From assembly GCA_029960955.1 (NCBI GenBank), contig JASBVS010000009.1, forward strand, positions 22,645 through 86,644: DNA of 64,000 nucleotides, in the 5' to 3' direction. Position numbers and translations under genes: made by a program. The notes beneath the pieces are model-generated. The model saw nothing but the letters and a program-made list of their open reading frames with translations, did no database searches and was not told where the DNA came from. Origin of the DNA: Bacillota bacterium. GTDB taxonomy: Bacteria; Bacillota; Sulfobacillia; JAIMAT01. Below, piece by piece: positions 42,630 through 57,733 of the stretch (position 1 is the stretch's first letter; every line of letters begins with the position of its first letter).

Positions 42630-43400
42630 TCAGTCGTCCAGGAAGGCGACCAGCCTGCAGATGGAGGACTCGCCCCGGAAGAACTTCCAGGGGAAGGCGC
42701 CCACCGTCACCCTCCGGTTGACGATCTGGTCGATGCCGCGACCGATGTTCTCGATCAGCAGGACGTTGCGCGCCGCCGTCCGGCGGTGGCTCTGAAGGAA
42801 GTGCTTCCTGGGCAGCAGCTCCTCGATGGGCCTGCCGAACTTCTGCTCCATCTCCTCGACGAGGTCGGGGCGGTAGTTGCGGATGGCCGTCCAGAGCGGG
42901 TGCTCCACCGAGGGTGCGTCGGCGCCGATCCACGGCGCCTCCACCTCGTCCAGCAGGTAGGTGACCAGGTCCACCGACGGACCCGGGCACTTGCAAAAGT
43001 AGCGCGTCTCGTCGGGCTCCTCGCCCTCCCAGTTGAAGCGGTGCCAGTTGTAGTAGAGGATGACCGCGTCGCCCTTCTGGATGGCGGGCGCCTTGGCGGC
43101 GGCGGCCAGGAACATCTCCCGGTCGACGATGGTGTAGTCGTCGACGAAGGGGCTCAGGTCGACCACCACCGTCGGGCGGTAGAGCCGGTCCAGCGGGATC
43201 TCGTGGACCCACCAGCCCCTGGGGTTGAAGTGCTGCGGCGCGTCGACGTGCGTCCCGGAGTGCATGTTGGTCTCGATGATCTGGCTCTGCAGGCCGTCCC
43301 GGTGGTGGCTGTGGAAGTTGGTCACCTTGGTGCTGGGGAAGTAGGGCCATGTGGGCGTCAGCACGCCCCAGCTCTGCGTCAGGTCGACCAGCCTTGCCAA
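42630..43400 (-). CDS. Cyclase-family protein (kynurenine-formamidase-like fold)
   Basis: Cyclase-family motifs HSGTHVDAPQHF and DLVTYLLDEVE. The likely start is the TTG at 43400 (LARLVDLTQSWGV) with GGAGGAGAG immediately upstream. The ORF-track ATG at 43499 adds a low-complexity tail. Confidence 0.7.
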   Translation of the reverse strand: MARLVDLTQSWGVLTPTWPYFPSTKVTNFHSHHRDGLQSQIIETNMHSGTHVDAPQHFNPRGWWVHEIPLDRLYRPTVVVDLSPFVDDYTIVDREMFLAAAAKAPAIQKGDAVILYYNWHRFNWEGEEPDETRYFCKCPGPSVDLVTYLLDEVEAPWIGADAPSVEHPLWTAIRNYRPDLVEEMEQKFGRPIEELLPRKHFLQSHRRTAARNVLLIENIGRGIDQIVNRRVTVGAFPWKFFRGESSICRLVAFLDD

Positions 43401-54427: not shown

Positions 54428-55894
54428 CTAGCGCGGCATGCCGCCCGGCTGCTCGAGGCAGCCGAGGAGTTGCCGGGCGCGCTCGCGGGCGAAGGCCGCG
54501 TGCAGGAGGTCGCCGTCGTAGCGGGCGAGCCCGAGGCCGGCGCCGGCGTAGCGGACGATGACGAGCCCGCGCCGGAGCGGTTCGCCCGCGGGGCCGGAGG
54601 CGTGGGGCGGCCCGGGCGGGACCGCCTGCCCTTCCAGGAGCGCGCGCAGCGCCGCCGGCTCCAGGTCGACCACCTGCCGCCGGGCGAGGCGGCCGACGCG
54701 GTGCAGGGCGAAGCCCGACGGCCACCAGTGGCGCCCGGTCCAGTGGGCGAGCGGCAGGCCGGCCGCCCAGCGCTCCGGCCAGAGCGGCAGCCGGGGCAGC
54801 GTCGAGAGCCACGTGCGCTCGCCGCTCCGGTAGACGTGGAGCCCCTCGAAGGCCTCGGCGGGGATGCCGAAGCTCTCCTCCATCCAGGCGCGCACTTCGC
54901 GGCCGGCCGCCTCGTCGGGCGCTTCCTCGGGCGGCGGCGTCGCCTCCTCCGCCCAGGGGACGGGCGCCCGCAGCCGGAGCCGGGCGAGGAACATGCCGCC
55001 GGAGTCCAGGTGGTGCGGGTAGATCCGCCGTGCCCGCCGCACCTCGGGCAGGAAGGCGACCCCGTCCCAGCCGCCGGCGCCCTCCACCCCCGGCAGCGCC
55101 TGCGGCAGCGGTTCCGCCTCCACCGCGCCCCCGGCCGCGCGCAGGACGGCGTCCACCACCGCCTCGTCCTCCTCGGGGGCGAAGGTGCAGGTGGAGTAGA
55201 CCACCACCCCGCCCGGCCGGACGAGCGCCAGCGCGCGGCGCAGCAGCGCCTCCTGCAGCGAGGCCAGGCGGCGGAGGCGGTCCGCTCGCGGCGGTCGTCT
55301 CGGGCGCGGGTCGCGGCGGACGTTCCCCTCGCCGGAGCAGGGCGCGTCGACCAGCGCGCGGTCGAAGGCGAGGCCGGCCGGGAAGCGTCGCCCGTCGCAG
55401 ACGGTGACCACCGCCGAGGCGACGCCCATGCGGCCGAGGTTGGCCAGGAGCCAGCCCGCCCGCGCCGGATCGGCCTCGTTGGCCACGACCAGCCCCGAGG
55501 GCCCCACCCGCTCCGCGATCTGGGTGCTCTTGCCGCCGGGGGCCGCGCTCAGGTCGAGGATCCGCTCCCCGGGCTGCGGGTCGAGGGCGACGACCGGCAC
55601 GGCCGCCGCCGCTTCCTGGAGGTAGAAGAGGCCGAGCCAGTGCTCGAAGGTGGAGCCGGGCGGGCAGGGCCCGCCCTCCACCCGCATCACCTCCGGCGCC
55701 CAAGGGTAGGGCGCCAGGCGGAAGCCGCGCGCCTCGAGCCGCCCGCGCAGCTCCTCCGGCGCGACGCGCAGCCGGTTGGCCCGCAGCGCGTGCGGCTGGG
55801 GCCGCACCACCGCGGCGGCGAAGGCGGCCCAGTCGTCGACCAGCGCCCGGTAGCGCTCGAAGGCGGAGAGGACGATGCCGCTCCTGGCGCTCAC
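54428..55894 (-). CDS. NOL1/NOP2/Sun-family RNA m5C methyltransferase (RsmF-like)
   Basis: SAM-binding LDLSAAPGGKSTQI, motif IV DAPCSGEG, motif VI TCT. The candidate GTG at 55894 overlaps the RNase J stop (GTGA). The ORF-track 1086-aa version is a frame fusion across rnj. Confidence 0.8.
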   Translation of the reverse strand: MSARSGIVLSAFERYRALVDDWAAFAAAVVRPQPHALRANRLRVAPEELRGRLEARGFRLAPYPWAPEVMRVEGGPCPPGSTFEHWLGLFYLQEAAAAVPVVALDPQPGERILDLSAAPGGKSTQIAERVGPSGLVVANEADPARAGWLLANLGRMGVASAVVTVCDGRRFPAGLAFDRALVDAPCSGEGNVRRDPRPRRPPRADRLRRLASLQEALLRRALALVRPGGVVVYSTCTFAPEEDEAVVDAVLRAAGGAVEAEPLPQALPGVEGAGGWDGVAFLPEVRRARRIYPHHLDSGGMFLARLRLRAPVPWAEEATPPPEEAPDEAAGREVRAWMEESFGIPAEAFEGLHVYRSGERTWLSTLPRLPLWPERWAAGLPLAHWTGRHWWPSGFALHRVGRLARRQVVDLEPAALRALLEGQAVPPGPPHASGPAGEPLRRGLVIVRYAGAGLGLARYDGDLLHAAFARERARQLLGCLEQPGGMPR

Positions 55895-57603
55895 ACCTCC
55901 ACGATGATGGGCAGGATCATCGGCCGTCGGCGCGTCCGGTCGAAGAGGAAGTGGCTCGCCTCGTCGCGGACGGCCGCCTTGATCCCGTTCCACTCGGTGA
56001 CGCCCTGGGCCAGGCAGGCGGCGAGCGCCTGGCTCACCCGCTGCTTCAGCTCCTCCATCAGGGGCTCCGACTCGCGCACGTAGACGAAGCCGCGCGAGAC
56101 GACGTCCGGTCCGCCCAGGACCTGGTGGTTCTGGCGGTCCATGGTGACCACGAGGATGAGGACGCCGTCCTGCGAGAGCTGCTTCCGGTCGCGCAGGACG
56201 ATGGAGCCCACGTCGCCCACGCCGAGCCCGTCGATCAGGATGTCGCCCGCCGTCACCTTGCCGTTGATGCGGGCGCCCTCGGGCCGGATCTCGAAGACGG
56301 AGCCGTTCTCCCCGATCAGGATGTTCTCCGGCGGGATGCCGACGCTCTCCGCCAGCCGGCCGTGGCGGATCAGGTGACGCCACTCGCCGTGGACGGGGAT
56401 GAAGTAGCGCGGCCGCACCAGGTTGAGCATCAGCTTCAGCTCCTCCTGGCTTGCGTGGCCGGAGACGTGGACGCCGTTCTCGATGCCGTAGATGACGTTG
56501 GCGCCCAGGTGGTAGAGGTTGTCGATGGTCCGGTAGATCATCGTCTCGTTCCCGGGGATGGGCGAGGCGGAGATGACGACGGTGTCCCCGGGGACGATCT
56601 CCACCCAGCGATGGTCTCCCGTCGCCATCCGCGTCAGCGCGGAGAGCGGCTCGCCCTGGCTGCCCGTCGTCAGGATGGCCAGCTGGTGTCCCTTGTAGCG
56701 CTTGATCTCCTCGACGCTGATCAGCGTGCCGGGCTTGACGTCGAGGTAGCCCAGGTCCAGCGCCACCTGGACCGTGTTCTCCATGCTCCGCCCGACCACG
56801 GCCACGTGCCGGTGGTGGTGGACGGCGGCGTCGATCACCTGCTGGATGCGGTGGACGTTGGAGGCGAAGGTGGCCACCAGCACCCGTCCCGAGGCCGTCG
56901 CCATCACCCGGTCCAGCACCAGCCCCACCGTCTTCTCCGACGGCGTGTAGCCGGGCCGCTCGGCGTTGGTGCTGTCGGACATCAGCACCAGGACTTCCTC
57001 GCGCCCCAGCTCGGCCAGCCGCTGCAGGTCGGCGACGCGCCCGTCGACCGGCGTCAGGTCGATCTTGAAGTCGCCGGTGTGGACCACCGTGCCGATCGGC
57101 GTGCGGATGGCCAGCCCGTAGGCGTCGGGGATGGAGTGGTTGACCCGGAAGGGCTCGACCACGAAGTTCTGCCCGAAGGAGATCCGTTCCCCCGGCGTGT
57201 AGACGCGGGAGCCCTCGGGCAGCTGCATATGGTGTTCCGCCAGCTTCTCCTCGATGAGGCCGAGCGCCAGGCGGGAGGCGAAGACGGGCACCGGGATCTC
57301 GCGCAGCAGATAGGGGACCGCGCCCACATGGTCCTCGTGCCCGTGGGTGATGACCAGCCCGCGAACCTTCTCCCGGTGCTCCTTCAGGTAGGTCAGGTCG
57401 GGGATCACCAGGTCGATCCCCAGCATCTCGTCCTCGGGGAAGGCGAGCCCGGCGTCGTCGATCAGGATGTCGTCGCCGTACTCGAAGAGGGTCATGTTCT
57501 TCCCGATCTCGCCCAGCCCGCCCAGCGGAATGATCTTCAGTGGCTCGCCCGGCCCGTTCCCGGCACGTGGACGACCGTGGCGAGGCCGTCGGCTTTTGGC
57601 TAT
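55891..57603 (-). CDS. rnj: Ribonuclease J (metallo-beta-lactamase / beta-CASP); start codon anomalous
   Basis: Metallo-beta-lactamase HxHxDH motif (THGHEDHVG), beta-CASP and C-terminal domains. The conserved N-terminal strand LKIIPLGGLGEIGKN is encoded in frame upstream of the first ATG (57495), but no ATG/GTG/TTG lies between it and the in-frame stop at 57616-57618. The 5' end here is set at an ATA codon (57601-57603) 8 nt after GTGAGGTGGGG. Position after dapA matches B. subtilis rnjB. Confidence 0.8.
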   Translation of the reverse strand: MAKSRRPRHGRPRAGNGPGEPLKIIPLGGLGEIGKNMTLFEYGDDILIDDAGLAFPEDEMLGIDLVIPDLTYLKEHREKVRGLVITHGHEDHVGAVPYLLREIPVPVFASRLALGLIEEKLAEHHMQLPEGSRVYTPGERISFGQNFVVEPFRVNHSIPDAYGLAIRTPIGTVVHTGDFKIDLTPVDGRVADLQRLAELGREEVLVLMSDSTNAERPGYTPSEKTVGLVLDRVMATASGRVLVATFASNVHRIQQVIDAAVHHHRHVAVVGRSMENTVQVALDLGYLDVKPGTLISVEEIKRYKGHQLAILTTGSQGEPLSALTRMATGDHRWVEIVPGDTVVISASPIPGNETMIYRTIDNLYHLGANVIYGIENGVHVSGHASQEELKLMLNLVRPRYFIPVHGEWRHLIRHGRLAESVGIPPENILIGENGSVFEIRPEGARINGKVTAGDILIDGLGVGDVGSIVLRDRKQLSQDGVLILVVTMDRQNHQVLGGPDVVSRGFVYVRESEPLMEELKQRVSQALAACLAQGVTEWNGIKAAVRDEASHFLFDRTRRRPMILPIIVEV

Positions 57604-57733
57604 TCCGACCCCACCTCACTTGCTCTGGATTTCTTCCGTCCGCCCGAACTCGTCGCCGCGTATTATAGTGCCCCGCCTCCCTCCTCACAAGGAAGAGCAG
57701 GAAGCGGGGCCTCCCGCGCCTCCCCGGGGGCGC

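Follow-up and report, generated by a model that had tools for sequence, protein, structure and literature searches.

At which codon does translation of RNase J begin in a bacterium whose rnj frame offers no canonical start codon for the conserved N-terminal strand of the enzyme? The question is raised by the minus strand of a 64,000-nucleotide stretch of DNA (the window), which comes from the draft genome (61 contigs, 2.26 Mb, 93% complete, 73.8% GC) of a heat-loving, GC-rich bacterium. In many Gram-positive bacteria RNase J acts as the central 5'-exo/endoribonuclease, and because of this role its amount sets global mRNA stability. A first-pass annotation had noticed the missing start and offered three explanations, namely a rare non-canonical initiation codon, a base-call error or frameshift in the assembly, and a genuinely truncated RNase J. 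The features of the start region are as follows.

57616..57618, minus strand: in-frame TGA that closes the frame upstream of rnj and overlaps the Shine-Dalgarno sequence (SD), read from the sequence.
57612..57617, minus strand: SD core GAGGTG, inside GTGAGGTGGGG, 8 nt before ATA.
57601..57603, minus strand: proposed rnj initiation codon ATA, from SD distance and invariance in relatives.
55891..57603, minus strand: proposed rnj CDS of 570 aa plus TGA, from the ORF, TIGR00649, domains and structure matches.
57541..57600, minus strand: codons 2-21 of rnj, the Arg/Pro/Gly-rich N-terminal tail AKSRRPRHGRPRAGNGPGEP, from the three-species alignment.
57496..57540, minus strand: rnj codons for the first beta-strand LKIIPLGGLGEIGKN, from profile and structure alignments.
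57493..57495, minus strand: first in-frame ATG of rnj, an internal codon (Met of GKNM) with no SD upstream.
57579..57620, minus strand: block of 42 nt that does not vary among three species and covers the SD, the spacer, the ATA and the first 8 codons, from the three-way DNA alignment.

On the minus strand the frame leaves the closing stop as TGA (57618-57616) GGT GGG GTC GGA ATA (57603-57601) GCC AAA AGC CGA CGG, and passes through the first beta-strand as CCA CTG (57540) AAG ATC ATT CCG CTG GGC GGG CTG GGC GAG ATC GGG AAG AAC ATG (57495-57493). Between the TGA and ATG 57495 there is no in-frame ATG, GTG or TTG, and the strand is encoded just upstream of that ATG; both points were already made in the first-pass annotation, and our reading of the frame agrees with it. 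The absence of a canonical start codon for the conserved N-terminal strand is therefore confirmed. The ORF extends over 55891..57495 (534 aa) when ordinary starts are used, and over 55891..57603 (570 aa), with ATA as its first codon, once near-cognates are permitted. The strand is in frame, and it belongs to the product only if initiation takes place at or upstream of 57540.

The 570-aa product is a complete member of the RNase J family. It matches the RNase J profile TIGR00649 with 647.5 bits (cut-off 400), residues 22-567 being aligned with profile positions 1-545. The first profile position is the Leu of LKIIPLGG, so that the strand LKIIPLGGLGEIGKN runs from position 1 onward. The RnjA exception model gives 727 bits, which is under its cut-off of 820, and the assignment is for this reason to RNase J and not strictly to J1. 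The domains Lactamase_B (PF00753), RNase_J_b_CASP (PF22505), RMMBL (PF07521) and RNase_J_C (PF17770) score above their cut-offs, and the metal-binding motif HxHxDH is present as HGHEDH in ITHGHEDHVGAV. Alignments with solved RNase J structures run from one end to the other, and the E-value is 7.6e-183 for RNase J1 of B. subtilis (3zq4). These alignments begin at the first beta-strand, ahead of which the solved chains have 3-23 residues. The same four domains and HGHEDH are found in RnjA of B. subtilis (3zq4) and in the enzymes of Thermus thermophilus (3bk1) and Streptomyces coelicolor (5a0t). The chain is 570 aa long here and 555-562 aa in the solved enzymes, with N-terminal residues preceding beta1 in both. 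The 20-residue Arg/Pro/Gly-rich tail is specific to this genus, unlike the RNase J of the three structures. Short basic tails ahead of beta1 also occur in relatives; we note that the tail of this genus is 12 residues longer than in the nearest ones.

These features bear on the proposal of a truncated RNase J, which would start at ATG 57495 and lack the first beta-strand, with LKIIPLGGLGEIGK outside the product. ATG 57495 is the first canonical start of the frame, and it is used by one NCBI MAG annotation (534 aa). However, no SD lies ahead of it, and its Met, that of GKNM, is an internal residue conserved in many homologues. The 15 codons upstream of it are conserved at the protein level among three species, with synonymous changes, and they begin the TIGR00649 profile. 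Moreover, rnj is present in a single copy, the sole RNase J gene found in the draft genome. With the strand conserved, no SD and no second gene, truncation is very unlikely.

Only one start-capable codon of rnj, ATA 57603-57601, lies at SD distance. The strong SD-like motif described 8 nt before it in the first-pass annotation is present, with its GAGGTG core at 57617-57612; the aligned spacing from the 3' end of GGAGG to the ATA is 10 nt. For comparison, the spacing at 161 SD-led ATG, GTG and TTG starts of this genome is 3-15 nt, mostly 6-12, with a mode of 9. In the 64-kb window the arrangement GAGGTG-N8-ATA has a single occurrence, where 0.02 would be expected. In addition, ATA is strongly avoided as a codon in rnj: the 43 Ile codons comprise 41 ATC, one ATT and one ATA, the last being codon 1. 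No SD match of 5 nt or longer was found before CTG 57540, ATC 57534 or ATT 57531. An initial genome-wide tally of codons and SDs carried no information, since a genome of 74% GC is full of GGAGG and open frames, and it was superseded by a stricter filter. In the latter, near-cognates behind a strict SD at ORF 5' ends are as frequent in this genome as the background, and rnj is the only case with ATA.

Two congeneric species, at 91% and 94% protein identity, served for comparison of the start region; their frame is laid out in the same way, with 574 codons open. The 42-nt block at 57579..57620 is the second-longest invariant run in the 4.7-kb three-way alignment and is comparable to active-site coding segments. 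The spacer just upstream of it is poorly conserved, with substitutions and indels among the three species. Codons 2-21 contain no indels and no stops; of their 8 variable sites, 5 are third-position and 3 change the amino acid, which is a weak coding signal. The minimum free energy of the RNA around the start is no better than that of shuffles (z = +0.92), and because the block is invariant, the three-species fold is nearly without covariation.

The same comparison bears on whether an assembly or base-call error conceals an ATG, a GTG or an indel. The genome is a draft in 61 contigs at 74% GC, in which such an error could be suspected. Nevertheless, the SD-ATA block is identical in the assemblies of the two other species. 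Logan contigs from three independent metagenome studies (two coal, one hot-spring), 90-100% identical, also cover 57579-57620, with no difference or indel listed there and many differing sites in the flanks. These contigs are from DNA; a look for RNA runs containing this stretch gave no entry. Parallel AUH or CTG starts of rnj are moreover found in many other genomes, closed ones among them. An error at this site is thus extremely improbable.

A start inside the strand, at CTG 57540, ATC 57534 or ATT 57531, would leave the SD-ATA block as nothing but 5' UTR. Database records point this way, since the protein of the window genome begins at CTG (549 aa, MKIIPLGG) and the NCBI MAG protein of a sister species at ATC (547 aa, MIPLGG); ATC 57534 is, further, kept in all three species. 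However, CTG 57540 is excluded, because the sister species have CTC or CTT there, and only ATA has an SD. A downstream start would also place 0-2 residues before or within beta1, where almost all of the 120 homologues listed from outside the genus, and the solved structures, have several to dozens. Lastly, it leaves unexplained the open, indel-free frame from ATA and the invariance of SD, spacing and ATA. We regard initiation within the strand as unlikely.

Another reading places the start at the out-of-frame GTG 57619, or at GTG 57566, and requires a programmed shift into the rnj frame, for example at CCAAAAG. The frame of GTG 57619 is open and overlaps the region, and an A4 run is present at 57597-57594. 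Against this, GTG 57619 lacks an SD, and each species has different bases ahead of it. In this genome (G000) the frame of GTG 57566 ends after 9 codons, at a stop that G001 does not share. A canonical slippery heptamer is absent, and the distance of the SD suits ATA and neither GTG. A frameshifted start has hardly any probability. A small upstream ORF from GTG 57566 was considered separately and rejected, as it has no SD and is not conserved.

Of the explanations first proposed, it is the rare non-canonical start that gains support, with ATA as the best candidate by SD spacing, closed frame and conservation. On this comparative evidence rnj very probably initiates at ATA 57603-57601, which would yield an RNase J of 570 aa. 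An unusual initiator tRNA was considered and rejected: the sole initiator-like tRNA among the 39 assembled tRNAs carries the normal CAU anticodon. With this usual anticodon, AUA would be decoded through a third-base mismatch, as at the AUU and AUA starts of infC (PMC5499595).

The search for rnj was extended to all 210 species of the class and located the gene in 199; the start region was fetched for 130, and 127 loci were tallied. Among these, CTG is the best SD-paired start in 36 loci, TTG in 29, ATG in 14, ATC in 10, ATA in 6, ATT in 4 and GTG in 4, with 24 uncalled; these calls are heuristic, being based on the SD, and the related genomes are non-independent samples. About half of the related species sampled thus appear to use one of the rare starts ATA, ATC, ATT and CTG for rnj. 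By family, a near-cognate is the best call in 14 of 41, the call being strong in 9 of these 14 and weak in f9, f13, f20, f47 and f52. The control gene dapA in sampled relatives (n = 21) gave 17 canonical starts, 4 uncalled and none near-cognate.

Alignment with rnj orthologues, a check proposed in the first-pass annotation, reveals an invariant SD-ATA block in the sister species and AUH at the homologous codon in the nearest families. The closest outgroup (G045, 67% identical) has AAGGAGGT-10-ATC GCC AAA TCG, with the N-terminus IAKS as here, and the start in G046 and G047 is ATT. The arrangement in G024 is GGAGGTGA-10-ATA. In two metagenome contigs of 64% identity, ATA ATA comes after GGAGGTGA, and the stretch from SD to strand holds no canonical start; their nearest in-frame canonical starts lie at least 38 codons upstream of beta1 and have no SD. 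Family f24 has AGGAGGTG-9-ATC in all six genomes, two of which contain no canonical start in the 40 codons upstream of beta1. Within this AUH group only ATA, ATC and ATT interchange at the homologous codon. Since no relative has a canonical codon there, the start position is placed by the SD, the closed frame and conservation.

Families f7, f25, f49 and f50 as a rule have GGAGGTG-8-CTG. Of their 43 sampled loci, 36 start with CTG and 5 with ATG, and two are uncalled, one with TTG at the start codon and the other with an ATG in frame shortly before the strand. At least 4 genomes of f7 have ATG at the same codon (GGAGGTGgattg ATG GCT AAA CCG vs CTG GCA CGC CCA), and one genome of f25 has TTG there. 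The replacement of CTG by ATG or TTG in relatives fixes this codon as the start of the CTG group. The next conserved Leu, 8-9 codons downstream, is encoded by CTC (12), TTA (9), TTG (5) and CTG (4).

Two large families have a canonical start. All 8 called loci of f42 (L221, L225, L228, L234, L256, L260, L261 and L265) begin with TTG, and so do all 12 called loci of f21. With TTG throughout these families, ATG is a minority rnj start in the class, at 14 of 103 called loci. As an outgroup baseline, 31 of about 157 Clostridia loci could be classified by motif, with TTG in 17, ATG in 7, GTG in 6 and a weak ATT in 1. A further 112 loci are off-motif; those inspected are Faecalibacterium-like, with FLGG for PLGG and the N-terminus MPKAKETG.

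The public annotations of the gene differ even within the genus. The RNase J entries of the three sister species (P0001, P0002 and P0008) have 549 aa (CTG), 547 aa (ATC) and 534 aa (ATG). All three omit the tail and the SD-led ATA, and two of the three lose part or all of beta1. Gene callers thus treat the rnj start inconsistently, and because the three differing calls drop the tail or beta1, the N-termini used in annotation pipelines and in structure predictions of this clade are wrong.

The surroundings of rnj contain the following features.

57697..57717, minus strand: terminator-like hairpin after dapA (stop 57736-57734).
57685..57690, minus strand: -35-like hexamer TTGTGA of the candidate rnj promoter, from motif score and three-species conservation.
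57662..57667, minus strand: -10 hexamer TATAAT of the candidate rnj promoter, with CACTATAATAC invariant in three species.
54428..55894, minus strand: gene for an RsmF/B-like 16S rRNA methyltransferase, whose GTG overlaps the rnj stop (GTGA).

The element TTGTGA-17-TATAAT at 57690-57662 scores 10/12, against 0.0 expected in shuffles. Since it follows the terminator-like hairpin of dapA, rnj appears to have its own promoter, and the arrangement suggests transcription from it. We infer a 5' UTR of about 45-50 nt. Downstream, the methyltransferase frame remains open across the whole of rnj, so that an ORF of 1086 aa is called there.

These elements can be combined into a proposed mechanism. The mRNA would probably start a few bases past TTGTGA-17-TATAAT. 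The strong SD GAGGUG, 8 nt upstream, would position the 30S subunit at AUA, with which the ordinary initiator tRNA (CAU) would pair except for a mismatch at the third base. The 570-aa RNase J would then begin with fMet, probably removed before Ala, and have a basic tail of 20 residues in front of the first beta-strand. Against this scheme, AUA is reportedly a poor start codon in some E. coli reporter work. The weak codon, together with the strong SD, most likely keeps the output of RNase J low and sensitive to start-codon proofreading by IF3. The actual N-terminus of RNase J, its low output and any dependence on IF3 are what we infer from this scheme.

The retention of a weak rnj start across many families points to selection on dosage or regulation, and the weak codon behind a strong SD appears to be a conserved design and no accident. 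The simplest idea is that it limits the dosage of RNase J, on which global mRNA stability depends. Possibly RNase J also feeds back on itself through its own leader. A broader proposal, which we consider doubtful, is that weak starts with very strong SDs form a conserved control device for decay-starting enzymes, such as RNase J in this thermophilic Bacillota class, tying the capacity for RNA decay to the state of translation initiation. Such a tie could operate via IF3 proofreading, or slow commitment of the 30S subunit at the SD could compete with RNase J attacking its own leader in the 5'-to-3' direction, and such competition would amount to feedback.

Conserved near-cognate starts are known from other genes. 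The gene of IF3, infC, has an AUU, AUA or AUC start through which IF3 autoregulates its synthesis, and pcnB of E. coli starts with AUU (PMC5499595, PMC2830850). Like rnj, these are housekeeping genes of RNA or translation with AUH behind an SD, conserved across lineages (PMC5499595, PMC2830850). By analogy, rnj may have a lower output than with AUG and the IF3 sensitivity of infC and pcnB. The systems differ in that the regulator of infC is its own product IF3, by an experimentally proven mechanism, whereas a feedback loop at rnj would be hypothetical. Unlike that of infC, the start codon of rnj varies among AUA, AUC, AUU and CUG between families. Non-canonical starts of dnaA (ATC) and rpsL (CTG) in Deinococcus-Thermus were demonstrated by N-terminal proteomics (PMC2830850). 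They resemble rnj as lineage-wide, conserved near-cognate starts of an essential gene, detected through a conserved N-terminus without a canonical start, and misannotated in public records. The gene and the phylum differ, and the dnaA and rpsL starts have peptide evidence, whereas that for rnj is comparative. A search of a paper library for a non-canonical start, autoregulation or a CUG start of RNase J returned no relevant report. On the comparative data, rnj may be classed as an added case among the genes of the infC, pcnB and dnaA kind.

Three other genes of this genome were noted in passing. The gene for RNase Y, rny (L323, G000:C27:31566-33083), begins at an ordinary TTG behind GAAGGAG; weak starts are hence not general to the RNases of the genome. 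In infC (L032, G000:C12, ~103,985-104,010) the order is GGGGGTGA-6-ATC GCC AGG GAG TTG, with no well-placed canonical start. The TTG four codons after the ATC abuts the SD-like AGGGAG, which suggests a near-cognate ATC start for this gene as well. On the minus strand of G000:C45 (first base 42641), GGAGGTG-8-CTG AAG GCG GTC GCG TTC encodes LKAVAFD..., which resembles the MKAV... N-terminus of medium-chain dehydrogenases; this may be a second near-cognate (CTG) start, but GTGs in the same frame are present 3 and 6 codons before it.
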